Part shown: piece after piece, positions 12,431 to 59,393 of the stretch
Numbering within the stretch: position 1 is the first letter of the stretch
Layout: each line of letters opens with the position of its first letter
DNA from: Candidatus Rokuibacteriota bacterium
Lineage (GTDB): Bacteria > Methylomirabilota > Methylomirabilia > Rokubacteriales > CSP1-6
Length of the DNA stretch: 64,000 nucleotides
Direction: 5' to 3'
Assembly: GCA_044869815.1 (NCBI GenBank)
Contig: JBIOXS010000189.1
Coordinates: forward strand, 5,341 to 69,340
Notes under the pieces: model-generated
Told to the model about the DNA's origin: nothing
What the model saw: only the letters and a program-made list of their open reading frames with translations
Database searches by the model: none
Position numbers and translations under genes: made by a program

Positions 12431-13461
<1,031 letters not shown>

Positions 13462-13485
13462 CCCTCCCGGGCAGGCGATCCCCCC

Positions 13486-13526: not shown

Positions 13527-13546
13527 GGCGACGCAGGGATCGAGTG

Positions 13547-14992
13547 ATGGCACTCAGCGGCATCGTCGCAACCGAGCTTCAGCGGATCGTCGGCGCCGAC
13601 GGCGTGTTCACGTCGCGCGAGGCGCGGCTGACCTACGACGCGGACATGCACACGCTCTACAAAGGTGAGCCCGACGCGGTCGTGCTTCCGCGCTCCACCG
13701 AGCAGGTCCGCGACGTCGTGCGCCTCTGCCGCCGCGAGCGCATTCCGGTCGTGCCCCGCGGCTCGGGCACCGGCCTCATCGGCGGCGCCATGGCGCCGCG
13801 AGGCGGCGTGATGGTCTCCATGACCCGCATGACCGAGATCCTCGAGGTGGACCTGACCAATCGGACGGCGACCGTGCAGCCCGGCCTCGTCAATCTGTGG
13901 CTCACCAACGCCGTGCGCGACCGCGGGTACTTCTTCGCGCCCGACCCGTCGAGCCAGATGGTGTCGTCGATCGGCGGCAACGTCTCGACGAACGCCGGGG
14001 GCCCGCACTGCCTGAAGTACGGGATCACGACGAACCACGTGCTGGGGCTCGAGTTCGTCACGGGCACCGGCGAGGTCATCCGCGTCGGCGGCAAGGCCGC
14101 CGATCGGCCGGGCTACGATCTGCCCGGCACGATGGTCGGCGCCGAGGGCACGTTCGGGCTCGTGACGGCGGTGACGGTGCGGCTGCTCCATGTCCCCGAG
14201 GCGGTGAAGACGGTGCTGGCGGCCTTCGCCACCGTCGTGGATGCCTCGGAGGCCGTCTCGGCCATCATCGCGGCCGGCATCGTCCCCGCCGCGCTCGAGA
14301 TGCTCGACGAGGCCATGGTCGGCGCCATCAACGCCGCCGTGGGCAAGGTCTATCCCGACGGCGCCGGCGCCGTGCTCCTGATCGAGCTCGACGGGCCGCG
14401 CGCCGAGGTCGACGCTCAGGGCGAGCGTATCGCCGCGATCTGCCGCGAGCGGCAGGCGCTGTTCGTCACCGTCGCCCGTGACGAGCTCGAGCGCGCGCTC
14501 CTGTGGAAGGGCCGCAAGGAGGCGGCGGGCGCCATCGGACGGATCGCCTCCGCGTACCTGTTGCAGGATGCCGTCGTGCCGCGCTCGAAGCTGCCACAGA
14601 TCATGCGCGAGATGGTCGCCATCGGCCGGCGCTACGGCCTCATGATCGCCAACGTGTTCCACGCCGGCGACGGCAACTTGCACCCGATGATCTGCTACGA
14701 CGATCGCAAGCCCGAGGAGCTGGCGCGCGCGCAGGAAGCCAACGAAGAGCTGCTCCGCGCCTGCATCGCGCTGGGCGGCAGTGTCACCGGGGAGCATGGG
14801 GTCGGGATGGACAAGGCGAAGAACCTGCCGCTGCAATACGCCGACGCGGATCTCAACTTCATGTACCGGCTGCGGCGCGTGTTCGATCCCGACGGCCTCA
14901 TGAATCCCGCCAAGCTCTTGCCGTCGCATCCGGCCTGCGGCGAGGGCTTCCGTCCGACGCGGCCGAAGCTCCCGGACGGCGCGTGGGTGTGA
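13547..14992 (+). CDS. glcD: FAD-linked oxidase, glycolate oxidase subunit GlcD-like
   Basis: ORF 13544..14992. ATG 13547 preferred (SD AGGGA 7 nt upstream). FAD-binding PCMH domain PRGSGTGLIGGA and C-terminal GEHGVG motif. Confidence 0.85.
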   Translation: MALSGIVATELQRIVGADGVFTSREARLTYDADMHTLYKGEPDAVVLPRSTEQVRDVVRLCRRERIPVVPRGSGTGLIGGAMAPRGGVMVSMTRMTEILEVDLTNRTATVQPGLVNLWLTNAVRDRGYFFAPDPSSQMVSSIGGNVSTNAGGPHCLKYGITTNHVLGLEFVTGTGEVIRVGGKAADRPGYDLPGTMVGAEGTFGLVTAVTVRLLHVPEAVKTVLAAFATVVDASEAVSAIIAAGIVPAALEMLDEAMVGAINAAVGKVYPDGAGAVLLIELDGPRAEVDAQGERIAAICRERQALFVTVARDELERALLWKGRKEAAGAIGRIASAYLLQDAVVPRSKLPQIMREMVAIGRRYGLMIANVFHAGDGNLHPMICYDDRKPEELARAQEANEELLRACIALGGSVTGEHGVGMDKAKNLPLQYADADLNFMYRLRRVFDPDGLMNPAKLLPSHPACGEGFRPTRPKLPDGAWV

Positions 14993-14996
14993 CGGC

Positions 14997-16295
14997 GTGA
15001 GCGTCACGACGCGCTCGCTGGCCGGCGCGCTCGCGGCCGTGGTCGGCGCCGACGGAGTCCGCGACGACGCCGCGACGCTCTCCCAGGCCGCCGTCGACGG
15101 GCTGACGCCGCGCTCGGTGGTCTCCCCGGCGACGCCGGAGCAGCTCGCGCAGGTGCTCGCGCTGGCGCGGGCGGAGGAGCTCGCAGTGGTGCCCCGCGGC
15201 AGCGGGGTCAACCTCGAGCAGGGAGCCCCGCCGCGCCGCGTCGATCTCGTCGTCGATCTGCGCCGCCTCGACGCGATGGTGGAGCACAATCCCGACGACC
15301 TCACGATCAGCGTGCAGGCGGGGATGACGGCGGGGGCGCTGGCCGCTCGCCTCGCGCCGCATCGCCAGACGTTGCCGCTCGACCCGCCCGGCTGGAGCGC
15401 GCGCACGCTCGGCGGCATCGCCGCCACCCAGGCGAGCGGACCGCTCCGGATGCGCTACGGCACGATGCGCGATCTGCTCCTGGGCGTCCGCTTCGTCCAG
15501 GCCGACGGAGTCCTGACCTGGGGCGGCGCGCGGGTGGTGAAGTCCGTGACCGGCTACGACGTCCCCAAGCTCATGGTCGGCGCCCTCGGCACGCTCGGCG
15601 TCCTCGTGGAGCTGACACTCCGCCTGCATCCGGCGCCCGACGTCGAGGCGACCTGGCTGGCGACGTTTCCCTCGACGGCGCAGGCCCAGGAGTGTGTCGC
15701 GATGCTGCTCGACTCCGCGGTGCAGCCGAGCCGCCTGGAAATGCTCGATGACCGGGCGCTCGCCGGCTGCGGCCTGCCCGTGGCCGCCGCCGCCCTCGCC
15801 GTCTCCATCGCCACCGTCGAGCCGGCGGTGCGCGCGCAGGGAGCGGCCGTGGCCGAGTTCGTCCGGCGTGTCGGCGGCGGCATCGAGACGATCGACGCGA
15901 GCATCTGGAACGCTTACGATCGAATGCTCGCCGCCCCCGGCGGCGTGACGCTGCGCATCGGTACCGTGCCCTTCCGGCTCGCGGCGACCTTCGCCGAGAC
16001 GCGAAGCGCGCTCGACACGGTGGCGGTCGCCGGCTGCGCGGGGCTGGGCGCGCTGCGGGCGCGCGTCGAGGGCGGCGACGTGCCCGCCCTCTCGCGTGGC
16101 ATCGAGCGGCTGCGCGCATTCGTGTCCGAGGTCGACGGCGGCGTGATCATCGAGCGCGCGCCGCGAGCGCTGCGTGAGGCCGTCGATCCGTGGGGCCCGG
16201 TCGCGGCGCCGGCACTCGCCGTGATGCGCGCGATCAAGCGGGAGTTCGATCCGGCCGGCGTGCTGAATCCCGGCCGTTTCGTGGACGGACTCTGA
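14997..16295 (+). CDS. glcE: FAD-binding oxidoreductase, glycolate oxidase subunit GlcE-like
   Basis: ORF 14997..16295 with a GTG start. PRGSGVNLEQG FAD-binding domain. Position between glcD and glcF. Confidence 0.75.
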   Translation: MSVTTRSLAGALAAVVGADGVRDDAATLSQAAVDGLTPRSVVSPATPEQLAQVLALARAEELAVVPRGSGVNLEQGAPPRRVDLVVDLRRLDAMVEHNPDDLTISVQAGMTAGALAARLAPHRQTLPLDPPGWSARTLGGIAATQASGPLRMRYGTMRDLLLGVRFVQADGVLTWGGARVVKSVTGYDVPKLMVGALGTLGVLVELTLRLHPAPDVEATWLATFPSTAQAQECVAMLLDSAVQPSRLEMLDDRALAGCGLPVAAAALAVSIATVEPAVRAQGAAVAEFVRRVGGGIETIDASIWNAYDRMLAAPGGVTLRIGTVPFRLAATFAETRSALDTVAVAGCAGLGALRARVEGGDVPALSRGIERLRAFVSEVDGGVIIERAPRALREAVDPWGPVAAPALAVMRAIKREFDPAGVLNPGRFVDGL

Positions 16296-17557
16296 TGGCG
16301 GGCGAGACGGTCGACGCGCTTGACGCCCCGCAGACGCTCGCGGCGATCCGCTCCTGCGTTCACTGCGGCATCTGCCTTCCCCAGTGCCCGACCTACCGCG
16401 TGCTGGGCCAGGAGATGGATTCGCCGCGCGGGCGCGTCTACCTGATGCGCGCCGTCGCCGAGAAACGGCTCGACATGACCGACGGCTTCCGCCGCCACTT
16501 GGATCTGTGCCTCGGCTGTCGCGCCTGCGAGACGGCGTGTCCCGCCGGCGTCCCCTTCGGCTCTCTCCTCGAGACCTCGCGCGCCCAGATCGAGCGTCAC
16601 GGACGGCCGCTCCGCGAGCGAGTGCTCTCCTCGCTGATCTTCGCCGTGTTCCCATATCCGGGGCGGCTGCGGGCGCTGCTCGCGGCGGGTCGGCTGTACC
16701 GCCGCTCGGGACTGCAGGCGTTGGTTCGCCGCACGGGGATTCTCCGGAGCTTCCCGCGCCTGGCCGCGATGGACCGGCTGGTGCCCGCCGTCCCCGCCGC
16801 GGCACCGCTGCCCGAGGTCGTGCCGGCACGCGGCCGGTCACGCGGCCGGGTCGCGCTGCTGACCGGGTGCGTCCAGCGTCATGTCTATGCCGACGTCAAC
16901 CGCGACACCGCCCGTCTGCTCGCCCTCGCCGGCTGGGACGTCGTCGTGCCGCGCGGGCAAGGCTGTTGTGGCGCGCTCGAGCTCCACGCCGGCCGCCCGG
17001 ACGCGCTGCGCCGCCGTGCGGCCGCGCTCGGGTCGGTATTTCCCTCGGACGTCGACTGGGTGGTGACCAACGCGGCCGGCTGCGGCGCGGCCATGCGGGA
17101 ATACGGGCACTGGACGACGGACGAGGCGGCCATTCGTCTGGCGAGCCGCACGCGAGACGTCACCGAGCTCCTGGCCGACACCGAGCTGCCGCTCGAGCCG
17201 TTGCCGCTCACGGTGACGTACCATGATCCCTGCCATCTCGCCCACGGCCAGAAGATCCGCGCCGCGCCGCGTGCGCTGCTGGCGAAGGTCCCGGGCCTCA
17301 GCGTGGTGCCGCTCGCCGACAGCGAGCTCTGCTGCGGCAGCGCCGGCGTGTACAACATCCTGGAGCCGGAGATGGCCGAGCAGCTGCTGTCGCGGAAGAT
17401 CGACCGCATCGTCGAGAGCGGGGCCCGCACGGTGGTCACCGGCAATCCCGGCTGCCTCTTGCAGATCGCGAGCGGCTGCCGGCGGCGGGGAGTGGAGATC
17501 GAGGTGATCCATCCGGTGACGCTGGTGGCCCGCGCGGTGCGATGGGAGGCGCCATGA
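16295..17557 (+). CDS. glcF: Glycolate oxidase iron-sulfur subunit GlcF-like (2x[4Fe-4S] plus CCG domains)
   Basis: In the frame of ORF 16190..17557, ATG 16295 overlaps the glcE TGA. CVHCGICLPQCPTYRV and CLGCRACETACPAGV ferredoxin motifs. PRGRVYLMR motif as in GlcF. Confidence 0.85.
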   Translation: MAGETVDALDAPQTLAAIRSCVHCGICLPQCPTYRVLGQEMDSPRGRVYLMRAVAEKRLDMTDGFRRHLDLCLGCRACETACPAGVPFGSLLETSRAQIERHGRPLRERVLSSLIFAVFPYPGRLRALLAAGRLYRRSGLQALVRRTGILRSFPRLAAMDRLVPAVPAAAPLPEVVPARGRSRGRVALLTGCVQRHVYADVNRDTARLLALAGWDVVVPRGQGCCGALELHAGRPDALRRRAAALGSVFPSDVDWVVTNAAGCGAAMREYGHWTTDEAAIRLASRTRDVTELLADTELPLEPLPLTVTYHDPCHLAHGQKIRAAPRALLAKVPGLSVVPLADSELCCGSAGVYNILEPEMAEQLLSRKIDRIVESGARTVVTGNPGCLLQIASGCRRRGVEIEVIHPVTLVARAVRWEAP

Positions 17558-17877
17558 AGATCCGACTCGCAGAGCACGCGAAATTCCAGGCCGACAAGAT
17601 GGCGAAGATCGCGCTCGCGACCACCCCGCGCGCCCAGCTGGATCTGTACTGCCTCGAGTCGGGCCAGAGCCAGAAGGTCCACAGCCACGACGATCAGGAC
17701 AAGGTGTACGTGGTGCTCGAGGGCCGGGGCCGCTTCACGGTCGGTGCCGAGCAGTACGCGCTCGCGCCGGGCGAGGCGGTCGTCGCGACGGCCGGCGCGC
17801 CGCACGGCGTGACCAACGATTCCGGCGCGCGGCTGCTCCTGCTCGTCTTCGTCAGTCCGCCGCCGCCGCACGCATGA
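17554..17877 (+). CDS. Cupin domain protein
   Basis: ORF 17542..17877. ATG 17554 preferred (ATGA overlap with glcF, SD GGGAGG). Cupin motifs HSHDDQDKVYVVLEG and GAPHGVTN. Confidence 0.7.
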   Translation: MKIRLAEHAKFQADKMAKIALATTPRAQLDLYCLESGQSQKVHSHDDQDKVYVVLEGRGRFTVGAEQYALAPGEAVVATAGAPHGVTNDSGARLLLLVFVSPPPPHA

Positions 17878-18617
17878 CCGGTCCGGCGCGCGCCGCGCTG
17901 ATGATCACGTGCTTAGCCGACCTGTTCTATCCCGAGGTCGGCGAGCGCATCGTGCGTCTGCTGCGGCGGCTCGGCGTGACGGTGACGCTTCCGGGCGGCC
18001 AAACGTGCTGCGGTCTGCCCCTGTTCAACTCCGGCTACCACTCCGAGGCCGCCGCCGTGGCGCGCCGCACGGTGGCCGTGTTCGCGGACGCGGAGGCGGT
18101 GGTGGTACCGTCCGGATCCTGCGCGTGGATGGTGAAGCACGAGTACCCCGGCCTGCTCGGCAACGGTCCGGAGGCCGCGGCCGCACGGCAGCTCGCCGGC
18201 CGCACGTACGAGTTCTCCCAGTACCTCGTTCGCGCGCTCGGCCGGACGGAGTTCGAGACGGACGCGAGCGGGCGCGTGACGTACCACGACTCGTGTCACC
18301 TGCTGCGCGGCCTGCACGAGTCGGAGTCGCCGCGGACGCTCCTGCGCAATTTGCGGGGCGTGGAGGTCGTGGAGCTGCCGGGGAGCGATGAATGCTGCGG
18401 CTTCGGCGGCTCCTTCTCCGTCCGCTTGCCCGAGGTCTCGACGGCCATCCTCGACCGGAAGCTCGCCAACGTCGACGCCTCCGGCGCGAGCTGCGTCGTC
18501 GCCTGCGACGCCGGCTGTCTCATGCAGATGAAGGGCGGCCTCGAGCGCCGCGAGTCGAGCGTACGCGCCGTCCACCTGGCCGAGCTGCTCGATCGCGAGC
18601 GGGGGGGCGTCCGGTGA
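17874..18617 (+). CDS. lutA: (Fe-S)-binding lactate utilization protein LutA/YkgE (CCG domains)
   Basis: ORF 17874..18617, ATGA overlap with the cupin gene. CLADLFYPEVG...QTCCGLP and DSCHLLRGL...ECCGFGG CCG motifs. Confidence 0.85.
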   Translation: MTGPARAALMITCLADLFYPEVGERIVRLLRRLGVTVTLPGGQTCCGLPLFNSGYHSEAAAVARRTVAVFADAEAVVVPSGSCAWMVKHEYPGLLGNGPEAAAARQLAGRTYEFSQYLVRALGRTEFETDASGRVTYHDSCHLLRGLHESESPRTLLRNLRGVEVVELPGSDECCGFGGSFSVRLPEVSTAILDRKLANVDASGASCVVACDAGCLMQMKGGLERRESSVRAVHLAELLDRERGGVR

Positions 18618-20032
18618 GCGAGCCGCTGATCACCACGCCGCTGCGCGATCGGGCGCAGCAGGCGCTCGGCGACCGCTTCCTGCACGAGGCGCTCGACATC
18701 GCGACCACGAAGTTCATCGGACTGCGCCGCGAGGCGTTCGGCGACTTTCCGCAGGGCGAGCAGCTGCGCGATCGCGCGCGCGCGATCAAGGAGGCCACGC
18801 TCCAGCGGCTCGACGAGCATCTGGAGCGTCTGATCGACAACGTCGAGCGTCTCGGCGGACGCGTGCACTTCGCCACCACCGCGGACGAGGCTCGCGACAT
18901 CGTCCTCGACATCGCCCGCCGTACCGGCGCCCGGATGGCGGTGAAGTCCAAATCGATGGCCACCGAGGAGATTCACCTGAACGACGCGCTGGCGGCCGCC
19001 GGCGTGACGCCGGTGGAGACCGACCTCGGCGAGTACATCATCCAGCTGGCGCACGAGCGGCCCTCACACATCATCGCGCCGGCCATCCACAAGACGAAAG
19101 GGCAGGTGGCCGAGCTCTTCGCGCGCGAGCTCAAGCGCGAGGTCGCGCCCGACCCCGAGGTGCTGACGCGCATCGCCCGCGCCGAGCTGCGCGAAAAATT
19201 CCTGCAGGCGGACTTGGGCATCACGGGCGCGAACTTCGCCGTGGCCGAGACGGGGACGGTCGTGCTGGTGACCAACGAGGGCAACGGCCGCATGGTCACC
19301 TCGCTGCCGCGGGTGCACGTGGCCGTCATGGGGGTCGAGAAGGTCGTGCCGTCCATGACCGACCTGATGGTCTTTCTGAGCGTGCTCGCCAAGAGCGCGA
19401 CCGGGCAGAAGCTGTCCGTGTACACGACGCTCGTCCAGGGGCCGCGCCGAGCGCGGGAGCTGGAAGGGCCCGACGAGTTCCACCTGGTGCTGCTCGACAA
19501 CGGCCGGATCGCGCAGATCGGTGGCACCCTGCGCGAGGCGCTCTACTGCCTGCGCTGTGGCGCCTGCCTCAACGTCTGTCCCGTCTATCGGCAGATCGGC
19601 GGTCACGCCTACGGTTACACATATCCGGGCCCGATCGGGATCCTCCTCACCGCGATGCTGAACGGGCCGCGCTCGGTGAAGGAGCTGTCGCACGCCTCGT
19701 CGCTCTGCGGCGCCTGCGCCGACGCCTGCCCGGTGCGGATCGACATTCCACGGATGCTCATCGAGCTTCGCAAGGAGGTCGACGAGCAACAGCTCGCGCC
19801 GTGGCCCGAGCGCGTCCTGTTCAAGGCGTTCGCCTGGCTGCTGCGACGGCCCGGGGTCTACCGCCTGGGCGGGCCGCTCGGGCGCCTGCTCCAGCGACCG
19901 TTCGTGCGGGGCGGACGGATCCGCACGCTGCCGCTGTTCTTCGGCCACTGGACGCGGACGCGCGACCTGCCGCCGGTGGCGGCCCAGACCTTCCAGGAGC
20001 GCTGGGCGGCGCTCGAGCGGGAGACGCGGTGA
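18614..20032 (+). CDS. lutB: Lactate utilization iron-sulfur protein LutB/YkgF
   Basis: In the frame of ORF 18392..20032, GTG 18614 (GTGA overlap). LUD domain plus CLRCGACLNVCPVY and CGACADACPVRI ferredoxin motifs. Confidence 0.85.
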   Translation: MSEPLITTPLRDRAQQALGDRFLHEALDIATTKFIGLRREAFGDFPQGEQLRDRARAIKEATLQRLDEHLERLIDNVERLGGRVHFATTADEARDIVLDIARRTGARMAVKSKSMATEEIHLNDALAAAGVTPVETDLGEYIIQLAHERPSHIIAPAIHKTKGQVAELFARELKREVAPDPEVLTRIARAELREKFLQADLGITGANFAVAETGTVVLVTNEGNGRMVTSLPRVHVAVMGVEKVVPSMTDLMVFLSVLAKSATGQKLSVYTTLVQGPRRARELEGPDEFHLVLLDNGRIAQIGGTLREALYCLRCGACLNVCPVYRQIGGHAYGYTYPGPIGILLTAMLNGPRSVKELSHASSLCGACADACPVRIDIPRMLIELRKEVDEQQLAPWPERVLFKAFAWLLRRPGVYRLGGPLGRLLQRPFVRGGRIRTLPLFFGHWTRTRDLPPVAAQTFQERWAALERETR

Positions 20033-20781
20033 CCACGCGCGCGGCGTTCCTGGCCCGCATCCGCGGAGAGATGACGAAGACGCGCGGATTGTTCCCGGCG
20101 ACGCCGGCCGAGCGTCCGGCGCTGCCGCGCGAGCGGTTCGACGTCCTGCGCCGGGAGCTCATCGAGCGCTGGCCGCAAACGCTCGAGCGATTTCGCGCCG
20201 AGTTCGAGCGAGTGGCCGGCGTGTTCCATCGCGTACCGACCGCGGCCGACGTGCCGGCCGTGCTCGAGCGCATCTGCCGCGAGGGCGGTGCTCGCAGCGT
20301 GGTGACGTGGGCCATCCCCGCGCTCGGCGTCGACGCGGCGCCGATGCTGGGCGCCGCCGGCATCGCCGTGCAGGCGATGCCGGGCAGGGTGCCGCGGGCC
20401 GAGGAGCGGTCTCGCCTGCGTCAGGTCGTTGCGGGGGCGGACGTCGGCGTGACCGGCGCCGATCTTGCCGTCGCGGAGACGGGGACGCTCGTGCTGCGCT
20501 CGGCGGCGGGACGGCCACGCTCGACGTCGCTTCTGCCGGCGTGCCACGTCGCGCTCTTCGACCGATCGGCGCTCGTCGAGACGCTGGAGCAGGTCGGCGT
20601 GGCGCTCGAGGCGTGGCACGAGGGGCGTGCGGCCGACGACGAGGGCGCCGTCATCAACCTCATCACGGGTCCGAGCCGTACCGCGGATATCGAGCTCACG
20701 CTGACGCGGGGCGTTCACGGTCCGAAGGAGGTCCACGCCGTCTTCGTCGAGGCGGGGCTGGGGACCGCCGCGCATGGGTGA
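20029..20781 (+). CDS. lutC: Lactate utilization protein LutC/YkgG (LUD domain)
   Basis: In the frame of ORF 19801..20781, GTG 20029 (GTGA overlap). GVTGADLAVAETGTLVL and GPSRTADIE motifs of the LUD family. Confidence 0.75.
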   Translation: MTTRAAFLARIRGEMTKTRGLFPATPAERPALPRERFDVLRRELIERWPQTLERFRAEFERVAGVFHRVPTAADVPAVLERICREGGARSVVTWAIPALGVDAAPMLGAAGIAVQAMPGRVPRAEERSRLRQVVAGADVGVTGADLAVAETGTLVLRSAAGRPRSTSLLPACHVALFDRSALVETLEQVGVALEAWHEGRAADDEGAVINLITGPSRTADIELTLTRGVHGPKEVHAVFVEAGLGTAAHG

Positions 20782-21172
20782 GCTCTTCCATCCCGCCGAC
20801 GTCGACCGGTTGATCCCGCGGCTCACGCGCGTGATGGAGCGAGCAATGACGGCGCACGCCGCGGGCACGGCGATCGCGGAGCGCCTCGAGCAGGAGCGCC
20901 AGCGCATCCGCCTCGCCGGCGGCGGCCTGATCGATCGCGGCGCCTGGCAGGCGGACTCGGAACGTCTGGAGGCGCTGACCGAGACGGTGCGTCAGGCGCT
21001 CGCCGAGATCGCCGAGATGGGTGGCGTCACCAAGGACGTCACCCTCGGCCTCGTGGACTTTCGCCACGTTCGCGAGGGGCGGGAGGTGAACCTCTGCTGG
21101 AAATTCGGCGAGGATGCCGTGCGCCACTGGCACGGGCTCGACGAGGGCTACGCGAGCCGGAGGCCGCTCTGA
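20774..21172 (+). CDS. DUF2203 domain protein
   Basis: ORF 20774..21172, overlapping the lutC end by 8 nt. C-terminal GLVDFRHVREGREVNLCWKFGEDAVRHWHGLDEG matches my recollection of DUF2203. Confidence 0.6.
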   Translation: MGELFHPADVDRLIPRLTRVMERAMTAHAAGTAIAERLEQERQRIRLAGGGLIDRGAWQADSERLEALTETVRQALAEIAEMGGVTKDVTLGLVDFRHVREGREVNLCWKFGEDAVRHWHGLDEGYASRRPL

Positions 21173-21921: not shown

Positions 21922-21973
21922 ACCCAGGGGCACGCGATCTGCATCTCAAGTGGCGAGGGAGGGCGAAGGTCAT

Positions 21974-22912
21974 ATGTCCGCGACGCGCAAGGTCATTGTC
22001 ATTGGCTCCGGCCCCGCGGGCTACACGGCGGCGATCTATGCCGCCCGGGCGAACCTGGCGCCGCTCATGATCTCGGGCGTTCAGTCCGGCGGTCAGCTGA
22101 TGCTGACGACGCTCGTCGAGAACTACCCCGGGTTTGCCGACGGCATCGACGGTCCCGACCTGATGGAGACGATGCGCAAGCAGGCGGAGCGGTTCGGGAC
22201 GGAGATGGTCGCCGACGACGTCACCGCGGTCGACTTCAGTCGCCGGCCGTTCGTCGTTCGCACCGCCGATCAGTCGTGGGAGGCCGACACGGTGATCATC
22301 GCCAGCGGCGCCACCGCCAAGCTCCTGGGTCTGCCCTCCGAACGCGCGCTGCTGGGGCGCGGCGTCTCGACGTGTGCCACCTGCGACGGGTTCTTCTTCA
22401 AGGATCAGAACGTGATGGTCGTCGGGGGCGGCGACACGGCGATCGAGGAGGCGCTCTACCTGGCCCGTCTCGGCCGCAAGGTCAGCGTCGTCCACCGGCG
22501 CGACACGCTGCGCGCCTCGAAGATCATGCAGGAGCGCGCCCTCGGCAATCCGAAGATCGAGTTCATCTGGAACAGCGAGGTGGCCGAGGTCAAGGATCTC
22601 GCCGCCGACAAGGTCACCTCGGTGGTCCTGCGTGACACGAAGAGCGGTGCGCTCACCGAGCGGGCCGTGGACGGGCTGTTCGTCGCCATCGGCCACGAGC
22701 CGAGCACCGCGCTCTTCCGCGGCCAGCTCGACCTGCTGCCGAACGGCTACGTGAAGGTGGAGCCGGGGACGACGCGGACGTCAGTGCCGGGAGTCTTCGC
22801 GGCCGGCGACGTCCAGGACTTCACGTTCCGCCAGGCGGTCACCGCCGCCGGGACCGGTTGCATGGCCGCGCTCGAGGCCGAACGCTACCTCGAGGTGATC
22901 CACGCCGGTTGA
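21974..22912 (+). CDS. trxB: Thioredoxin-disulfide reductase
   Basis: In the frame of ORF 21533..22912, ATG 21974 with SD GAGGGAGGG. VIVIGSGPAGYTAAIYAARA, redox-active CATCDG and GGGDTAIEEA motifs. Confidence 0.92.
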   Translation: MSATRKVIVIGSGPAGYTAAIYAARANLAPLMISGVQSGGQLMLTTLVENYPGFADGIDGPDLMETMRKQAERFGTEMVADDVTAVDFSRRPFVVRTADQSWEADTVIIASGATAKLLGLPSERALLGRGVSTCATCDGFFFKDQNVMVVGGGDTAIEEALYLARLGRKVSVVHRRDTLRASKIMQERALGNPKIEFIWNSEVAEVKDLAADKVTSVVLRDTKSGALTERAVDGLFVAIGHEPSTALFRGQLDLLPNGYVKVEPGTTRTSVPGVFAAGDVQDFTFRQAVTAAGTGCMAALEAERYLEVIHAG

Positions 22913-42246: not shown

Positions 42247-43263
42247 ATGCAACTGGCGCTGAACCTGAATTACTCGGGCGCGAGCGTCGCCCTCGACCTC
42301 GACAAGGTGCTCGAGGCCGAGCGGCTCGGGTACACGTCGGTGTGGACGGCCGAGGCCTACGGCTCCGACGCGGTGACACCGGCGGCGTGGATCGCCGCTC
42401 ACACCACGCGCATCCACGTCGGCACCGGCATCATGCAGATTCCCGCCCGCACGCCGGCGATGACGGCCATGACCGCGATGACGCTGGACGCACTGTCCGG
42501 AGGCCGGTTCCGTCTCGGTCTCGGTGTGTCGGGGCCTCAAGTCGTCGAGGGCTGGCACGGTCAGCCGTTCGGCAAGCCGCTCAGGAAGACACGCGAGTAC
42601 GTCGAGATCGTGCGCGCGATCCTCAAGCGTGAGCGGCCGCTCGAATTCCGCGGCGAGTATTACCGGATCCCGTACGAGGGCGCCGACGCCACGGGACTGG
42701 GCAAGCCGCTCAAGTCGATCCTCCACGGCCGGGCGACGCTGCCGATCTACCTGGCCGCCGTCGGACCCAAGAACGTCGCGCTCGCGGCCGAGATCGCCGA
42801 CGGATGGATCCCCGTGTTCTTCTCCGCCCGGCGCAGCGCGACCTTCCGCGAGTGGCTCGACGAAGGGTTCACGCGGGGCGGGCGGAAGCGTGAGGGCTTC
42901 GACATCATGCCCATGGTTCCCGTCGTGATCGGAGCGGACACGGCCGCCTGCCGCGCGGTCGTGAAGCCCCGCATCGCGCTCTATGTCGGCGGAATGGGCG
43001 CGCGCGGCCGGAATTTCTACAACGACATCGCGCGCCGCTACGGCTACGAGGCGGCGGCCAAGACGATCCAGGACCTCTACCTCGGCGGCAACAAATCAGC
43101 GGCGGAAGCGGCGGTGCCCGACGAGCTCGTGGACGAGGTCGCGCTCTGCGGTCCGCGCGAGCGGATTCGCGAGCGGCTCGCCGAGTGGCAGGCGTCGGGC
43201 GTGACGACCCTCATGGTCGCCGGCGACGCCGCCGCCGTGCGCACGATGGCCGAGCTGGGGTAG
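42247..43263 (+). CDS. LLM-class F420-dependent oxidoreductase (luciferase-like monooxygenase family)
   Basis: ORF 42247..43263. [27 protein letters not shown] and [20 protein letters not shown] are typical of the TIGR03559-like LLM family. Confidence 0.8.
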
Positions 43264-43287
43264 ACGGCCGCCAGGAAGGAGCACGAG

Positions 43288-44049
43288 ATGAAGCTCAAGG
43301 ACAAGGTCGCGATCGTCACGGGCGCGGGATCGGGGATCGGGGCGGCGAGTGCGATCGCCATGGCCGCCGAGGGCGCCCGCGTCCTGGTCGTGGATCTGAA
43401 CGAGACGGGCGCGAAGAGCACCGTGGCCGCCATCGAGCGCGATCGGGGCACGGCGCTGGCCATGACCGCCGACGTGACGCGCGCCCCCGACAGCCAGGCG
43501 ATGGTGGAGCGCGCGGTGGCCGCCTGGGGCCGGCTCGACGTGTTCTTCGCGAACGCGGGGACGCCCCAGTGGAAGATGGACGTGGAGCAGGTCGAGGAGA
43601 CCGTCTACGACAAGATCTTCGACGTCAACGTGAAGGGCGTCTTCCTCGGCGCGAAGTACGCGCTGCCGGTCATGAAGCGCCAGAAGCGCGGCGTGTTCCT
43701 CATCACGGCGTCGACCGCCGGCATCCGGCCGCGCCCGGGCGGACAGGTCTACGCCGCGTCCAAGGGGGCGGTCATCACGCTGGCGAAGGCGCTGGCGCTC
43801 GAGGTCGCGCCGCACGGCGTCCGGGTCGTCGCCATCTGCCCTGTCGCCACGCACACGCCCATGCTGCCGACGTTCATGGGCAAGCAGCAGGTCGACGCCG
43901 AAGGCCTCGCGCGCTACGAGGCGACGGTGCCACTCGGGCGTCTGAACCAGCCGGAGGACATCGCGCGGACGGCGGTCTTCCTCGCCTCCGACGACGCGGC
44001 GATGATCACGGGCAGCACGATCGAGGTCGACGGCGGACGCTGCATCTAG
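43288..44049 (+). CDS. SDR family oxidoreductase
   Basis: ORF 43288..44049 with [18 protein letters not shown] cofactor motif, NAG, and the catalytic YAASK motif. Confidence 0.88.
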   Translation: MKLKDKVAIVTGAGSGIGAASAIAMAAEGARVLVVDLNETGAKSTVAAIERDRGTALAMTADVTRAPDSQAMVERAVAAWGRLDVFFANAGTPQWKMDVEQVEETVYDKIFDVNVKGVFLGAKYALPVMKRQKRGVFLITASTAGIRPRPGGQVYAASKGAVITLAKALALEVAPHGVRVVAICPVATHTPMLPTFMGKQQVDAEGLARYEATVPLGRLNQPEDIARTAVFLASDDAAMITGSTIEVDGGRCI

Positions 44050-44970
44050 ATGCGCGTCATTCCGCTCGCCGCCGAGTCACTCGGCGTCCGCTCGATGGCG
44101 ACCTATGTCGAGGCCGGCGACGTCGGCATCCTGATCGATCCCGGCGCGACGCTCGCGGCGGCGCGGTACGGGCTGCCGCCGGCGGAGGCCGAGTGGGAGG
44201 CGCTTCGTCGAGCCAACGATCGGATCTCGGCCTACGCCGCCCGCGCCTCTCTCGTGTTCGTGAGCCACTACCACGAGGACCACTATCGCTCGGATCCGGC
44301 GACCTACGTGGGCCGGACGGTCATCGCCAAGGAGCCGCGCCGCATGGTCGGCGGCCAGCAGAGCCGTCGCGGCGTCGCGCTGTGGACGTCGCTGCAGGCC
44401 GTGGCCAGGCTCGAGGCGGCCGACGGCTGGCGGCGGCGCGAGCCGCACGTGGAGCTTTCGGCTTCGCCGCCGCTGCCCCACGGCGTGGAGGGCACGCCGC
44501 TCGGCTACGTGGTCGCGCTCACGGTCGTCGACGTCGCCGAGCGCGAGCGGTTCGTGTTCGCCTCCGATGTGCAGGGACCGCTGTCGGCGGTCGCCGCCGG
44601 CTGGCTCATCCGGCAGCGACCGACGCTGCTCTATCTGTCCGGTCCACCGTCCTACATCGAACGCGACCTGCCCGAGGGCGCCATCGACCGCGGCATCGAG
44701 CATCTGCTCCGCGTGATCGACGCCACCGGCTGCCGCGTGATCATGGATCATCACGCGCTGCGCGACGGGGGATTCTCGGCACGCTTCGATCGGCTGTGGC
44801 GCACGGGCCGCGTCGTCACCGCCGCCGCCCACCTCGGCCTCGAGACGCTGGCGCTCGAGGCGCGGCGGCGTGCGCTGTGGGCCGACGTCCGCAAGGCGCC
44901 CGTCGCCGCCCGATCGTCGAGTGGTATCATCACGACGCGCACGTTCGCGAAAAGGGGGAACGCCGAGTGA
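44050..44970 (+). CDS. MBL-fold metallo-hydrolase-like protein (UPF0282-like)
   Basis: ORF 44050..44970. The ATG directly abuts the SDR TAG. SHYHEDHY resembles the HxHxDH metal motif. Confidence 0.6.
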   Translation: MRVIPLAAESLGVRSMATYVEAGDVGILIDPGATLAAARYGLPPAEAEWEALRRANDRISAYAARASLVFVSHYHEDHYRSDPATYVGRTVIAKEPRRMVGGQQSRRGVALWTSLQAVARLEAADGWRRREPHVELSASPPLPHGVEGTPLGYVVALTVVDVAERERFVFASDVQGPLSAVAAGWLIRQRPTLLYLSGPPSYIERDLPEGAIDRGIEHLLRVIDATGCRVIMDHHALRDGGFSARFDRLWRTGRVVTAAAHLGLETLALEARRRALWADVRKAPVAARSSSGIITTRTFAKRGNAE

Positions 44971-45431
44971 CAGACAACAAGACGCTCAACGTCGGCGACC
45001 AGGCCCCGGGCTTCACGCTGAAGACCATCGGGCTCAAAGAGGTCAGTCTCGCCGACTACAAAGGCAAGAACGTCGTCCTGCTCTTCTATCCGCTCGACTG
45101 GACGCCGGGCTGAAGCAAGTGCATGCCCGCCTTCGACAAGCGCGTGAGCGACTTCGAGGCGGTCAATACCCAGGTGCTGGGTATCTCCACCGATAGCCCC
45201 TTCAGCCACGAGAACTGGGCCAAGGCGGTCGGCATCAGCCACTATCCGCTGCTCTCCGACGTGCATCGCACCGTCGCCAAGGAGTATGGCGTGTACTGGC
45301 CGGACTGGAACGCCAACAACCGCGCGACGTTCATCATCGACAAGACCGGCAGGGTGCGCTTCGTCGAGCGCTACGGCAAGGGCGAGCTGCCCGATCCCGA
45401 CAAGATGCTCGGCGAGGTGAAGAAGCTCTAG
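44967..45431 (+). CDS. Peroxiredoxin (AhpC/TSA, BCP-like) with in-frame UGA at the peroxidatic position: predicted selenoprotein (U49)
   Basis: GTG 44967 (GTGA overlap with the MBL gene, SD AAAGGGGGAA). The tail of ORF 43185..45113 and ORF 45123..45431 share one frame and are split only by TGA 45111-45113. The joined protein reads VVLLFYPLDWTPG-U-SKCMPAF...ISTDSPFSH. Confidence 0.7.
45127..45162 (+). promoter_or_regulatory. Candidate bacterial SECIS hairpin downstream of UGA 45111
   Basis: Pairs 45127-31:45158-62, U45132 bulged, 45133-36:45154-57, 45139-40:45152-53, 45141-43:45148-50. Apical loop GUGA (45144-47) sits about 30 nt after the UGA. Confidence 0.55.
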
Positions 45432-46348
45432 CCGCGCGCGGGAAGCCGGACGACCGTCCGGCCTCCCGTCGTCAAGGCCACGCCGGCCAGCACCATGGCG
45501 GCGCCGCCGATCTGCCAGGGGCCGATCTCCTCGCCCACGAGCAGCGCCGCCGTCCCGATCCCGACCACCGGCGTCACGTTCATGAAGATCGCCGCGCGGC
45601 TCGGGCCGACGCGCTCGACGGCCGCATACCACCAGAGATGGGCGACGGCGCCGGGAATGGCGTGATAGAGGAGCACGGCCCACGCGACGGCCGAGCCGAG
45701 CCGCGGCCGCGGCGTGAGGGGCGCCGTCACGATCGCGAGCGGAACGAGGATCAGCGTGCCGCAGACGTAGGCGGCGGTGGTCGTGAGAACGGGTGAGTGA
45801 CCGCTCAGCACGCGCTTGCCGTACACCGTGTACACCGTCCACCCGACGAGGGCGAGCAGGGTGAGGAAATCGCCGAGCCGCAGCTCGCTCGGCGCCAGCT
45901 CCGCCAGGCGGTCCTCGGTCACCACGAGGAGGACCCCGAGCATCGAGATCGCGACGCCGACGCGCTGCTTCGCTCGCAAGCGCTCGCCGAGATACGCGCG
46001 CGCACCGAGCGCGACCATCACCGGCGCCGTGGCCTGGAGGATCGCCGCGTTGGCCGCCGACGTCGTGTAGATGCCCCAGTAGCTGATGTGCGCGGAGACG
46101 ACGAACCCGGCCGTGCCGAGCACGAAGAAGGACGTGACGGCGTCGGTGCTGAGCGCGCGCGCCGCATTGAAGCCGGCGCGGAGCACCAGCGCCGAGAGCA
46201 GACCGGCCGCGATCGCGCAGCGCACCGCGGTCAGCAGCGTCGGTGGAATATCGGCGAGCGCCAGCTTGGAGGTGGCGGGGAAGGTGCCCCAGAGCGTCGC
46301 GATCAGCAACAGCGCGACGTACGCGCGTGTTTGACTGAGCGGGGGCAC
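45428..46348 (-). CDS. DMT superfamily (EamA-like) transporter
   Basis: ORF 45428..46567, start moved to GTG 46348 (VPPLSQTRAYVALLLIATLWG). Ten predicted TM segments and two EamA repeats. Its stop overlaps the peroxiredoxin stop by 4 nt (convergent). Confidence 0.8.
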   Translation of the reverse strand: MPPLSQTRAYVALLLIATLWGTFPATSKLALADIPPTLLTAVRCAIAAGLLSALVLRAGFNAARALSTDAVTSFFVLGTAGFVVSAHISYWGIYTTSAANAAILQATAPVMVALGARAYLGERLRAKQRVGVAISMLGVLLVVTEDRLAELAPSELRLGDFLTLLALVGWTVYTVYGKRVLSGHSPVLTTTAAYVCGTLILVPLAIVTAPLTPRPRLGSAVAWAVLLYHAIPGAVAHLWWYAAVERVGPSRAAIFMNVTPVVGIGTAALLVGEEIGPWQIGGAAMVLAGVALTTGGRTVVRLPARG

Positions 46349-55941: not shown

Positions 55942-55996
55942 TTGACGAACGCGATATGCTGCGTGGTATGGTCTCGGCCACCACAAGATATAGGAG
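55942..55996 (+). promoter_or_regulatory. Candidate nrdJ promoter (TTGACG ... TGgTATGGT) with two NrdR-box-like AT-cored palindromes
   Basis: TTGACG at 55942-47 and TATGGT at 55967-72 (19-nt spacer, TG at 55964-65). Boxes ACGCGATATGCTGCGT (55949-64) and CCACAAGATATAGGAG (55981-96) each match about 11 of 16 positions of the NrdR consensus as I recall it. Confidence 0.3.
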
Positions 55997-56003
55997 GTGC
56001 CGG

Positions 56004-59000
56004 ATGCTGTCGGAGACCCGCCCCGCGAAAGTCGGCCAGTGGACTGAACCCGCCCTCCGCGTCCTCCGCGAGCGCTATCTCCTCCGCAAGGATGGAGAGG
56101 TGATCGAGACGCCGGAGGAAATGTGCTGGCGGGTCGCGGTGTCCATCGCCGCCGGGGAAGGGCGCTACGGCCGCAGCCCGGCCGCCGTCCGAGAAGTCGC
56201 CGAGGCCTTCTACGACATGATCGTCGACGGCTATTTCATCCCGAACTCGCCCACGCTGATGAACGCGGGCAAGGGAAACGGTCTCCAGTACTCGGCGTGC
56301 TACGTCCTGCCCGTCGGCGATTCGATGGAGGAGATCTTCGACTCGGTCAAGGCCGCGGCCATCATACATAAAAGTGGTGGTGGCACTGGATTTGCCTTCT
56401 CGCGCCTGCGTCCAAAGGACGACATCGTCAGCTCGACGGGCGGTCGCGCGTCCGGCCCGGTCTCGTTCTTGAAGGTATTCAACGGCGCGACCGAAGCGGT
56501 GAAGCAGGGGGGCACGCGGCGCGGCGCGAACATGGGGATCCTGAAGGTCGACCATCCCGACATCCTCGAGTTCATCGACTGCAAGCTGGACGGCGGGATC
56601 ACGAACTTCAACATCTCCGTGGCCGCCACCGACAAGTTCATGGACGCACTGGCCCGCGGCGAAGAATACGATCTCGTCAATCCGCACACGAAGAAGGTCG
56701 TCGAGCGGCTGTCGGCGCGCGAGGTCTTCGAGCGCATCGTCCGCGCGGCGTGGCGCACCGGCGATCCGGGCATGGTGTTCATCGATCGCATCAACGCCAG
56801 CCCGGCCAACCCCACGCCGGAGATGGGCCAGGTCGAAGCGACCAACCCTTGTGTCACCGGCGACACGCTCGTCTACACGGCAGCCGGGCTCGTACGCGCC
56901 GATGTCTTGGCCGCTCAGAAAGAGTCGATCGACGTCGTCCTCGACTCGCGGTTCGATGCCGGGGAGTGGGGACCCGCCTCGGCGGTCTTCGAGACCGGCG
57001 CCAAGCCCGTGTATCGCCTGGTCACGACCGAGGGTTACGAGCTGAAGCTCACCGCCGATCATCGTGTCATGACAGCGCGAGGCTGGCGTCGAGCCGACGA
57101 GCTCGAGCCCGGCGACCTGCTCCACATCCTCAACCGGAAAGGTGCGTTCGGGACGACCGGGACCCTCGAGGAGGGCCGCCTTCTCGGCTGGCTCGTCGGC
57201 GACGGACACATCCGCCCGGACAAGGGCGCAATACTGAGATTCTATGGCGAGGAGAAGCGCGAGCTGGCGCCGGCGTTTGCCGAGTGGATGAATACCGCGC
57301 TCGGTTCCAAGCCGGGCGACCGTTATCACGTGTCGGCCGTCGAAGTCACGGGCCGTGATCAGGCCACGGTGAGCTCCGTTCGATTCGCGCGGCTCGCCCA
57401 GCAACGCTTCGGACTGACGCAAGAGAACAAGGTTGCTGGTGTCCCCCCGGCGGTGCTCGCCGGCTCCGAGGCGCTCCAGCGAGGATTCCTGCAGGCGCTC
57501 TTCACCGCTGACGGGCAGGTATACGGCAGCCGGCAGAGAGGGCTGTCGGCGCGGCTGACGTCGATGTCGCTGCCGCTGCTTCGTGACGTTCAGCGCATGC
57601 TGCTCAACTTCGGCATTGCCTCACGGATCTACCCGAACCGGCACACCGAGAGGCCGAGGACGATGCCGGATGGGCGTGGCGGCTCGGCAGAGTATCTGTG
57701 CAACGCGGATCACGACCTCGCAGTTGCTCGCGAGAACGTCGTGGCGTTCCTGGACGACATTGGATTCTTGACGCGCGCCAAGCAGGATCGTCTGTGTCAT
57801 CAGACCGCGTACGTTCGTCGTCCATATCGCGAGCCGTTCGTGGCCCGGTTCGAGGCGCTGGAACCGCTCGGGATCGAGACCGTCTTCGACCTCAAGGAGC
57901 CGTTCACGCACAGCTTCATCGCGAACGGTCTGGTCGTGCACAATTGTGGCGAACAACCGCTTTTGCCGAACGAGGCGTGCAACCTCGGCTCCCTGAACGT
58001 CTCGAAGTTCGCGCGGCGGCCGGAGAACGGCGAGTGGTCCATCGACTGGGACGAGATGGAGCGCGTGGTGCGCCTGGCCGTGCGGTTCCTCGATGACGTC
58101 ATCGAGATGAATCCGTACCCGCTGCCGGAGATCGACCAGACGGTGAAGGCCAACCGTCGCATCGGGCTCGGCATCATGGGCTGGGCCGACCTGCTCTTCG
58201 TCATGGGCATCCCGTACGAGACGCAAGAGGCCATCGATCTCGCCGATCGTCTCATGTCGTTCGTCAAGGAGAAGTCGCACGATCAGTGTGCCAAGCTCGC
58301 CGAGGAGCGGGGGCCGTTCCCGAACTGGAGCCGGTCGATCTACAAGGACGTCCGCCCGATGCGGAACTCGACGGTGACGACCATCGCGCCGACCGGCACC
58401 ATCTCGATGATCGCCGGCTGCTCGTCCGGCATCGAGCCGATCTTCGCGCTCGCGTTCCAGCACCGCGTCAAGCAGCCGGACGGCGAGCGGGTGCTGACGT
58501 TCGTGAACGAGACCTTCGAGGCGATCGCCCGCGAGAAGGGCTTCTTCTCGACGGCGCTGATGGAGGAGATCGCCAGGCACGGCACGCTCCACGACATCCC
58601 CGGCGTGCCGGAAGAAGCGGCCCGCGTCTTCAAGACCTCGCACGAGATCCCGTTCGAGTGGCACGTGCGGCATCAGGCGGCCTTCCAGCGCTACACCGAC
58701 AACGGCGTGTCGAAGACGATCAACCTGCCAAACGATGCGAGCGAGGTGGACGTCGCCAACGCCTACAAGCTCGCCTGGGAGCTCGGCTGCCTCGGCATCA
58801 CCGTGTTCCGCGACGGGTGCAAGGGCGAGCAGGTGCTGAACGTCGGCGTCGGCAAGAAGGACAAGGTCGCCGCGCAGCTTCCCACTGCCGGCCAGGTCGT
58901 GATCAAGCCGCGGCCCCATAGCCTTTCGGGCAAGACGTATCGGATGGAGACGCCGATCGGCACCGCGTTCATCACGGTCAACGAGACGCCCGAGGGCGAG

Positions 59001-59393
59001 CCCTTCGAGGTGTTCGTCCAGGTCGGCAAGGGCGGCTCCGACACCATGGCCGTGGCGGAGGCGCTCGGACGCCTCATTTCGCTCACGCTCAGGCTACCTT
59101 CGCCGCTTTCAGCTCAGCGACGGCTCGAAGAGGTCATCAGCCAGCTCGCGCGGATCGGCGGCGCCCAGCCGATGGGCTTCGGCGCCGGCAAGATCCTGTC
59201 GCTGCCCGACGCGCTGGCGCGCACGCTGGCCGAGCACACGGGACAGCTGAAGCAGCCCGGCGCGCCCAGCCAGCCACCGCACGCCGACGAGCGGCGGACG
59301 ATCGGCGATCTCTGCAAGGAATGCGGCCAGGCCACCTTCGTCTACGAGGAAGGGTGCAAGAAGTGTCTCTCGTGCGGCTTCAACGAGTGCTGA
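56004..59393 (+). CDS. nrdJ: Adenosylcobalamin-dependent (class II) ribonucleotide reductase, intein-containing
   Basis: ORF 55848..59393, ATG 56004 with SD AGGAGG 5 nt upstream. Exteins carry the class II motifs: TNP|C..|CGEQPL active-site finger, CNLGS, TIAPTGT. C-terminal CKECG...CKKCLSCG zinc ribbon. Confidence 0.92.
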   Translation: MLSETRPAKVGQWTEPALRVLRERYLLRKDGEVIETPEEMCWRVAVSIAAGEGRYGRSPAAVREVAEAFYDMIVDGYFIPNSPTLMNAGKGNGLQYSACYVLPVGDSMEEIFDSVKAAAIIHKSGGGTGFAFSRLRPKDDIVSSTGGRASGPVSFLKVFNGATEAVKQGGTRRGANMGILKVDHPDILEFIDCKLDGGITNFNISVAATDKFMDALARGEEYDLVNPHTKKVVERLSAREVFERIVRAAWRTGDPGMVFIDRINASPANPTPEMGQVEATNPCVTGDTLVYTAAGLVRADVLAAQKESIDVVLDSRFDAGEWGPASAVFETGAKPVYRLVTTEGYELKLTADHRVMTARGWRRADELEPGDLLHILNRKGAFGTTGTLEEGRLLGWLVGDGHIRPDKGAILRFYGEEKRELAPAFAEWMNTALGSKPGDRYHVSAVEVTGRDQATVSSVRFARLAQQRFGLTQENKVAGVPPAVLAGSEALQRGFLQALFTADGQVYGSRQRGLSARLTSMSLPLLRDVQRMLLNFGIASRIYPNRHTERPRTMPDGRGGSAEYLCNADHDLAVARENVVAFLDDIGFLTRAKQDRLCHQTAYVRRPYREPFVARFEALEPLGIETVFDLKEPFTHSFIANGLVVHNCGEQPLLPNEACNLGSLNVSKFARRPENGEWSIDWDEMERVVRLAVRFLDDVIEMNPYPLPEIDQTVKANRRIGLGIMGWADLLFVMGIPYETQEAIDLADRLMSFVKEKSHDQCAKLAEERGPFPNWSRSIYKDVRPMRNSTVTTIAPTGTISMIAGCSSGIEPIFALAFQHRVKQPDGERVLTFVNETFEAIAREKGFFSTALMEEIARHGTLHDIPGVPEEAARVFKTSHEIPFEWHVRHQAAFQRYTDNGVSKTINLPNDASEVDVANAYKLAWELGCLGITVFRDGCKGEQVLNVGVGKKDKVAAQLPTAGQVVIKPRPHSLSGKTYRMETPIGTAFITVNETPEGEPFEVFVQVGKGGSDTMAVAEALGRLISLTLRLPSPLSAQRRLEEVISQLARIGGAQPMGFGAGKILSLPDALARTLAEHTGQLKQPGAPSQPPHADERRTIGDLCKECGQATFVYEEGCKKCLSCGFNEC
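56850..57944 (+). mobile_element. Intein (365 aa) with a LAGLIDADG homing-endonuclease domain, inserted at the catalytic Cys of NrdJ
   Basis: The host motif EATNP-CGEQPL is interrupted. The intein starts CVTGDTLV (block A), has TADHRV (block B), LLGWLVGDGH and FLQALFTADG (LAGLIDADG motifs), and ends LVVHN followed by the +1 Cys. Confidence 0.9.

Follow-up and report, generated by a model that had tools for sequence, protein, structure and literature searches.

Here we report a gene of Candidatus Rokuibacteriota bacterium that very probably encodes a selenoprotein, and an RNA element directly downstream of its UGA codon which may direct the recoding. The gene lies at positions 44967-45431 of a 64,000-nucleotide stretch of contig JBIOXS010000189.1, the whole of which is called the window below. 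Its predicted product is a peroxiredoxin, with predicted peroxidase activity, in which selenocysteine (Sec) would take the place of the peroxidatic cysteine (Cys) at an in-frame UGA (45111-45113). Two hairpins follow this codon. In the reading which we prefer, with a probability of roughly 0.6, the second hairpin would be the SelB determinant and the first would act as a spacer between it and the UGA.

44967-45431, forward strand: complete Sec-peroxiredoxin gene, predicted, 154 residues (translation; Pfam PF00578; Cys-type orthologs start at the same residue).
44950-44960, forward strand: Shine-Dalgarno-like purine-rich stretch AAAAGGGGGAA, 6 nucleotides (nt) 5' of the GTG start (read from the sequence).

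Translation of 44967-45431 gave a single frame consisting of 48 codons, TGA 45111-45113, 105 codons and the stop TAG 45429-45431. The open reading frames (ORFs) 43185..45113 and 45123..45431 both share this frame; the former runs to 642 residues, which we attribute to the 70.4% G+C content of the window, as long spurious ORFs are common in such DNA. The GTG start overlaps the stop of the upstream gene (GTGA, 44967-44970). The initial annotation of this DNA had already described one frame with a lone TGA, the GTG start with its overlap and a good Shine-Dalgarno sequence, and all of these were confirmed by translation or by the purine-rich stretch listed above. It had also expected gene callers to split the gene, as they do: public gene calls give proteins of 48 and 103 residues, and about 90 of the best 120 database matches are C-terminal fragments of 102-105 residues. 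In a composition screen of the 64 kb, the codon at 45111-45113 was the only TGA with coding-type codon-position G+C on both sides. When the same screen was applied to loci L001-L091, the sole further match was a TGA in L044, where a gene seems to end and a second ORF to follow; it was not retained. Since TGA is the commonest stop in the window and ends 36 of its 58 genes, a general reassignment of UGA to an ordinary sense codon was rejected.

The TGA is conserved at the same residue among related bacteria. A scan of one genome per species yielded 80 loci, nearly all labelled Candidatus Rokubacteria, Rokuibacteriota or Methylomirabilota, and the orthologous codon was TGA in 79 of them and TGC in one (L009); in our first collection of orthologous sequences TGA occupied this site in 83 of 84. 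The 81 distinct genes with the TGA (Sec-type), at 63-93% protein identity, contained no additional in-frame stop and no frameshift. Their mean pairwise differences at codon positions 1, 2 and 3 were 0.13, 0.10 and 0.37 upstream of the UGA, and 0.15, 0.11 and 0.34 downstream of it. Because third-position variation dominates and extra stops are absent, both sides of the UGA appear to belong to a single protein under purifying selection. Orthologs with a Cys codon at this site (Cys-type) share the gene neighbourhood, which comprises a luciferase-like oxidoreductase, a short-chain dehydrogenase, a protein of 306-321 residues of uncharacterised function, the peroxiredoxin and a convergent EamA transporter. 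In a rough neighbour-joining distance tree the Cys-type sequences nest inside the Sec-type ones at at least three places, which suggests that Sec has been replaced by Cys repeatedly in evolution. The prediction of a selenoprotein, made initially from this one gene, is thus upheld by the near-universal TGA, by the selection acting on both of its sides and by the syntenic Cys-type orthologs, and we consider it very probable that Sec would be inserted at 45111-45113.

Sec-peroxiredoxin genes 79-82% identical to the query were also found at five loci (L025, L045, L049, L054 and L082) filed under Verrucomicrobiia, Binatia, Actinomycetota and the archaeon Nitrosocosmicus; these are probably mis-binned Rokubacteria contigs. 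Sequence P0146, considered as a divergent lineage, was rejected, being a frameshifted copy (L094, contig_149317) from an error-rich assembly with a neighbourhood broken into short ORFs.

45090-45113, forward strand: active-site motif P-L-D-W-T-P-G-U (PxxxTxxU), with Pro at 45090-45092, Thr at 45102-45104 and Sec at TGA 45111-45113 (alignment with human peroxiredoxin-1, PRDX1).
45120-45122, forward strand: TGC, Cys at Sec+3 (UxxC, U-S-K-C), candidate resolving Cys (ortholog comparison).
45321-45323, forward strand: CGC, conserved peroxiredoxin active-site Arg in NNRATFIID (invariant R119; aligns with the Arg of SFRGLFIID in PRDX1).

When the TGA is translated as Cys, the full-length product matches the Pfam family AhpC-TSA (PF00578) with 142 bits (E-value 1.2e-41, cut-off 26), residues 9-132 aligning with profile positions 1-123 of 124. 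This match over the whole domain, above the gathering score, agrees with the AhpC/TSA-type peroxiredoxin of 154 residues that had been proposed. The separate halves cover profile positions 1-40 and 45-123, respectively, and ATG 45123 has no Shine-Dalgarno-like sequence before it, which bears out the earlier view that neither half is a stand-alone protein. The TGA column corresponds to the Cys of LDWTPG-C-S[KT]C in full-length 155-residue homologs and to the Cys in FYPLDFTFVC of PRDX1, which is established in this family as the peroxidatic Cys52. The homolog alignment therefore puts the TGA on the catalytic Cys, as the initial annotation had claimed. The P-L-D-W-T-P-G-U motif is invariant across the 81 distinct Sec-type orthologs, and PxxxTxxU is the motif given for Sec-peroxiredoxins in a review (PMC13188914). 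The TGC at +3 is present in 100% of the Rokubacteria Sec-type orthologs and is missing in the more distant loci L100-L105, which read U-T-A-Q.

The structure was assessed on an AF2 (AlphaFold2) model of a Cys-type ortholog, P0001, which is 86% identical. The mean confidence was 77 on the predicted local distance difference test (pLDDT), the active-site loop being of low confidence; helix 2 begins at residue 49, which is the peroxidatic position, and template-modelling (TM) scores against PRDX1 and AhpE of Mycobacterium tuberculosis were 0.83-0.85. The model thus predicts a peroxiredoxin fold of the thioredoxin type in which helix 2 opens with the peroxidatic residue. None of the NCBIfam peroxiredoxin models reached its cut-off (PrxU, NF040737, 79.8 vs 270 bits; Prx-SUH, 44.8 vs 298), so the protein falls outside both named Sec-peroxiredoxin equivalogs. 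The comparison with PrxU of Eubacterium acidaminophilum in the initial annotation is accordingly kept as an analogy, and equivalence with PrxU is not.

Sec-containing peroxiredoxins (PxxxTxxU) and peroxiredoxin-like UxxC selenoproteins are both established selenoprotein families of PF00578 (PMC13188914, PMC1088965). With Sec-peroxiredoxins such as PrxU the window protein shares PF00578, Sec for the peroxidatic Cys in PxxxTxxU and a coding-region stem-loop after the UGA; it differs in being shorter (154 residues), of the AhpE/Prx1-core type, with an extra Cys at Sec+3, and its gene comes from Rokubacteria/Methylomirabilota and carries a two-hairpin recoding signal. In length and fold it resembles the 1-Cys AhpE of M. 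tuberculosis (153 residues, PDB 1XVW): the sequence match has an E-value of ~1e-21 to 1e-22 at ~34% identity, and the model of the Cys-type ortholog superimposes over its full length with TM 0.85/0.83. AhpE, however, has Cys instead of Sec and no Cys at +3. The peroxiredoxin-like thiol:disulfide oxidoreductase selenoproteins (UxxC/UxxU) of Zhang and Gladyshev share the PF00578 homology and the UxxC; in that family (reference WP_010940744.1, compared by description only) UxxC replaces TxxU, whereas the window protein has both (T-P-G-U-S-K-C) plus the peroxiredoxin Arg. As judged from these motifs, it extends a known kind of selenoprotein by a new member, which joins PxxxTxxU and UxxC on a short AhpE-like scaffold.

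45127-45162, forward strand: hairpin 1, with lower stem CCGCCU/AGGCGG + CGA/UCG, upper stem and GUGA loop at 45144-45147 (folding; alignment of 76 orthologs).
45166-45184, forward strand: hairpin 2, AUACCCAG-GUG-CUGGGUAU, 8 base pairs (bp), apex G-GUG-C at 45173-45177 (RNAalifold; ortholog comparison).

Synonymous variation has a trough directly after the UGA: third-position differences in codons +3 to +24 are 0.16, compared with 0.34-0.37 in the flanks. RNA structure was examined in an alignment of 76 distinct sequences, each comprising the UGA plus 81 nt. Hairpin 2, whose loop starts 60 nt past the UGA, is separated from hairpin 1 by 3 nt; it is the sole helix in the RNAalifold consensus, with 99.8% pairing. 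Folded alone it has -10.2 kcal/mol (z = -3.42 vs shuffles), with a loop of 3 or 5 nt. All 8 bp are present in 82 of 83 Sec-type genes and the GUN loop in all of them. One pair shows an AU to GU to GC change. Rare codons are fixed within this hairpin, AAT in 100% and GGT in 98% of the orthologs, as against a usage of 14% and 8% in the genes of the window. The motif was found 92 times in the 705 kb of DNA collected for this analysis, and in 91 of the 92 cases a TGA stands exactly 55 nt upstream; the remaining case is L009, the ortholog with TGC.

The Cys-type orthologs show what becomes of hairpin 2 once the UGA is gone. Among seven distinct Cys-type sequences it is intact only in L009, the most recent convert, the rest having 5-7 bp or a CUA loop. 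An intact hairpin 2 with a GUN loop occurs in 80 of 81 distinct sequences of the Sec type and in 1 of 7 of the Cys type (Fisher p = 9e-8, a value that ignores phylogeny). In L090 the peptide T-Q-V-L-G-I is kept but is coded with CTC GGA, and the hairpin has decayed. The Cys-type loci L086/L087 keep the 8-bp stem, with the loop changed from GUG to CUA (nt 64-66 after TGT); this CUA is the Leu codon CTA, which makes up 0.3% of Leu codons in the window genes.

Hairpin 1 begins ~13 nt after the UGA. In the window it has ~14 bp, an unpaired U at 45133, ~-20 kcal/mol and a 4-nt loop 30 nt past the UGA; in this 70% G+C sequence the segment alone is not stabler than shuffles (z = -1.07). Across the 76 orthologs 93.4% of the cells are paired. 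Covariation at synonymous sites links the third position of a Pro codon with the third position of an Ala codon (CG 63, UG 3, GC 2, UA 1), and near the apex a CG to UA change involves the rare codon CGU. In the orthologs where Ala +16 has become Lys (L012, L031, L073 and L074) the Pro codon is CCG and a shifted GGCCUU/AAGGCC stem is formed. The apical loop varies (GUGA, AUCG, AUCC, ACCC and others), and a G stands in its first two positions in only 41 of the 76 orthologs. A G at this place is a hallmark of the bacterial selenocysteine insertion sequence (SECIS) (PMC13188914). Both hairpins, taken together with their behaviour across orthologs, are probably functional RNA. The initial annotation had presented hairpin 1, with its GUGA loop, as SECIS-like. 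It does fold as described, and its structure is conserved with covariation, although the loop is not; the SECIS geometry fits in the window, but the assignment was incomplete, having missed hairpin 2, which is the most conserved Sec-linked RNA element.

Two other pairings were considered. In some minimum free energy (MFE) folds AUGCCC (45123-45128, the Met-Pro codons) pairs with GGGUAU (45179-45184, the 3' arm of hairpin 2); this was rejected because alignment column 18 covaries with column 51 and not with column 69. RNAalifold also offered an enclosing helix GGCUG/CAGCC (45108-45112 with 45194-45198, i.e., -3..+2 with +84..+88), which includes the U and G of the UGA, and it was not accepted because the partner Ser codon varies. 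The Gly codon GGC preceding the UGA is unusually fixed (94%).

Starting from remote C-terminal fragments, we reached five more Sec-type lineages, each of which carries the TGA at this same residue. In three of these, L095/L096, L097 and L099, there is a single compact hairpin, a canonical SECIS whose GGA loop starts 20 nt past the UGA, and hairpin 2 is absent. The other two (L098, and L100-L105), at 46-65% protein identity to the window and with G+C of 0.58 (L098) and 0.50-0.63 (L100-L105), have the two-hairpin layout. Their hairpin 1 is of unrelated sequence and occupies the same span (~nt 15-51), with a loop of AAAG, CCGA or 11 nt. Their hairpin 2, encoded by the same codons as in the window (nt 56-74), is AUACCCAG-GUC-UUGGGUAU or AUGCYCAG-GUN-YUGGGCAU. 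Hairpin 1 is thus kept in shape and position but not in sequence, whereas hairpin 2 is kept in sequence. Among the distant lineages compared, hairpin 2 occurs exactly where there is no G-loop hairpin at the canonical distance. It seems that one peroxiredoxin family uses two alternative Sec recoding signals, either a single GGA-loop hairpin or a spacer with a distal GUN-loop hairpin. A metagenome scan with the L098 protein recovered the L100-L105 lineage and no close relatives of L098. Within L100-L105 (e.g., L100 1639-1722, FYPLAWTPV-U-TAQM), synonymous changes swap hairpin 1 between two pairing schemes with the span still closed, and the peptide PAYEADLERFKG remains unchanged by this switch.

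How might such an element work? The UGA would be decoded by Sec-tRNA(Sec) delivered by SelB, in place of release factor 2, and the two-hairpin element directly 3' of it would be the mRNA signal. With the UGA in the A site, about the next dozen nt lie inside the ribosome, as set by the length of the mRNA channel. As hairpin 1 starts 13 nt past the UGA and hairpin 2 follows 3 nt later, both can fold at the channel entrance. Hairpin 1, at the mouth of the channel, would then be a structured spacer, while SelB would contact the G-GUN-Y apex of hairpin 2, where a G is followed by a U in a small loop, as in the E. coli fdhF element. Folding of hairpin 1 would shorten the way from the UGA to the loop of hairpin 2 to an effective 60 - 36 = 24 nt. 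We propose these roles because the single-hairpin relatives have a similar distance, 20 nt, and because 24 nt falls within the 16-37 nt known for bacterial SECIS. In the protein, the Sec would react with peroxide to give a selenenic acid, to be resolved by the Cys at +3 (UxxC) or by an external thiol. If so, the element could represent a distinct class of bacterial SECIS, a suggestion to which we give even odds: a SelB hairpin ~60 nt from the UGA, a shape-conserved and sequence-free spacer, an effective distance of ~24 nt, and sister lineages with a single canonical hairpin.

The comparison with known elements shows both likeness and difference. The bSECISearch model specifies an apical loop of 3-9 nt, an upper stem of 4-16 bp, an MFE of at most -7.5 kcal/mol and a UGA-to-loop distance of 16-37 nt (PMC13188914); both hairpins lie within its loop-size, stem and MFE limits. 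Hairpin 2, with its 8-bp stem and G-GUG-C apex, fits the consensus N1-G-[G/U]-N-N2 (PMC13188914), and its CAGGU is part of the fdhF apex GCA-GGUC-UGC (we confirmed this fdhF sequence in 5,419 E. coli genomes). The start of hairpin 1, ~13 nt after the UGA, resembles that of the minimal fdhF hairpin, at 11 nt. Unlike in fdhF and the consensus, the G-loop hairpin lies 60 nt and not 16-37 nt from the UGA, a 36-nt variable-loop hairpin intervenes, and hairpin 2 has no bulged U.

Several observations speak against the proposed reading, with SelB binding assigned to hairpin 2. The loop of hairpin 2, at 60 nt, breaks the distance rule of the bacterial SECIS model (PMC13188914), and hairpin 1 of the window obeys every rule of the bSECISearch model (GUGA, G first, 30 nt, -20 kcal/mol). 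Hairpin 2 is mostly invariant, with a single covarying pair, and the Q-V-L-G-I part is constrained as protein, too; two Cys-type lineages retain it nearly intact. The contrast between the two layouts comes from three lineages of each kind. A covariance-model search, by which the initial annotation proposed to check its SECIS, gave no Rfam SECIS at gathering thresholds in the window, nor at E<=10 in 44900-45500, where the matches were chance ones only. As for the Sec machinery, ARAGORN found no tRNA whatsoever, and hence no tRNA-Sec, in the 64-kb window, and none of the ~40 window genes scanned with Pfam, those of SelA, SelB or SelD size first, was selA, selB or selD. Our literature search also returned no precedent for a two-hairpin bacterial SECIS or a looped-out spacer; the layout of this recoding signal, as drawn from sequence comparison, appears to be new. 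Some bacterial SECIS are known not to fit the model (PMC13188914), and bSECISearch misses ~13% of known genes (PMC12013277).

The alternative that survives best, which we nevertheless find rather doubtful, is that of a Sec-peroxiredoxin in which hairpin 1 alone is the SelB-binding SECIS, hairpin 2 being an accessory (for example for mRNA stability or ribosome pausing) or simply reflecting constraints on protein and codons. The agreement of hairpin 1 of the window with the model, the covariation of its stem at synonymous sites and its position, which is the same as that of the canonical SECIS in L095, L097 and L099, are all in its favour, and known bacterial SECIS lie directly after the UGA (PMC1088965). 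Against it, the G that such a loop should carry is present in only 41 of 76 orthologs, and the loops of L098 and L100-L105 read AAAG or CCGA or have 11 nt. It would also leave unexplained the fixation of rare codons in hairpin 2, the decay of hairpin 2 in Cys-type genes and its absence exactly in the lineages with a GGA loop.

It is much less probable that the UGA is read as Cys in a SECIS-dependent manner by a tRNA of the tRNA(ReC)/SelC* type, which would make the product an ordinary Cys-peroxiredoxin obtained by an unusual route. UGA-reading tRNAs with a downstream SECIS have been reported in several bacterial phyla (PMC13582414), and the sequence evidence presented here cannot distinguish Sec from Cys at the UGA. 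Such tRNAs are, however, rare and were found in other phyla (PMC13582414), whereas the phylum in question is described as selenoprotein-rich in a review (PMC13188914), and the window contains no tRNA of any sort. Moreover, the repeated change of TGA to TGC or TGT with subsequent decay of the hairpin implies that the two states are not equivalent. Least probable is that the TGA is a true stop, that is, a pseudogene, an assembly error or two associating small proteins (48 + 102 residues): gene callers do annotate it in this way and TGA is the commonest stop of the window, but its presence in 79 of 80 species (63-93% protein identity), the lack of any further stop or frameshift, the in-frame purifying selection on both sides, the location of the stop exactly on the catalytic residue, the partial match of each fragment to one domain and the lack of a Shine-Dalgarno-like sequence before ATG 45123 effectively exclude, at the level of sequence, the pseudogene, sequencing-error and two-peptide explanations.

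Public records carry this gene in split or truncated form for essentially every Rokubacteria genome, and so do roughly a hundred metagenome protein clusters encountered in this analysis; for this reason the catalytic half-site is missing from annotation. As the Sec-peroxiredoxin is kept in 79 of 80 species, a selenium-dependent peroxide defence is suggested for this widespread soil and groundwater phylum. This fits recent reports of very large selenoproteomes in Methylomirabilota. A metagenome-assembled genome of this phylum with 63 predicted selenoprotein genes is cited in a 2026 review (PMC13188914), and Sec-type group 4 hydrogenases have been reported in Methylomirabilota (PMC13582414); literature searches combining Rokubacteria or Methylomirabilis with selenocysteine returned nothing specific. 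The family provides a testable alternative SECIS architecture with natural controls, namely three two-hairpin lineages, three single-hairpin ones and several Cys reversions. If the spacer model is true, search tools should allow for a helix that is looped out between the UGA and the hairpin bound by SelB, and the SelB spacing rule on the ribosome would be three-dimensional and not linear.

44050-44970, forward strand: upstream gene of a 306-residue protein, translationally coupled by the GTGA overlap (context; NCBIfam).

Neither a Pfam domain nor a PDB relative was found for the product of this upstream gene; its resemblance is to the PRK04286 hypothetical-protein models, below their cut-off (204 bits < 526). 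Since the gene neighbours that of the peroxiredoxin in loci of both types, Sec and Cys, its product may be a functional partner of the peroxiredoxin.

Elsewhere in the window, 55956-59393 (forward strand) encodes the large subunit of a ribonucleotide reductase (1,145 residues), which has a TSCPD domain at its end and into which an intein carrying a LAGLIDADG homing-endonuclease domain (Pfam Intein_splicing and LAGLIDADG_3) is inserted. A metabolic cluster at 10562-21172 (forward strand) comprises 2-oxoacid:ferredoxin oxidoreductase subunits, GlcD/GlcE/GlcF-like oxidase proteins linked to flavin adenine dinucleotide (FAD) and LutA/LutB/LutC-like lactate-utilisation proteins. Finally, 21950-22912 (forward strand), 22 kb upstream of the peroxiredoxin gene, encodes a 320-residue pyridine nucleotide-disulphide oxidoreductase of thioredoxin-reductase size, a candidate that could belong to the reducing system of the peroxiredoxin.

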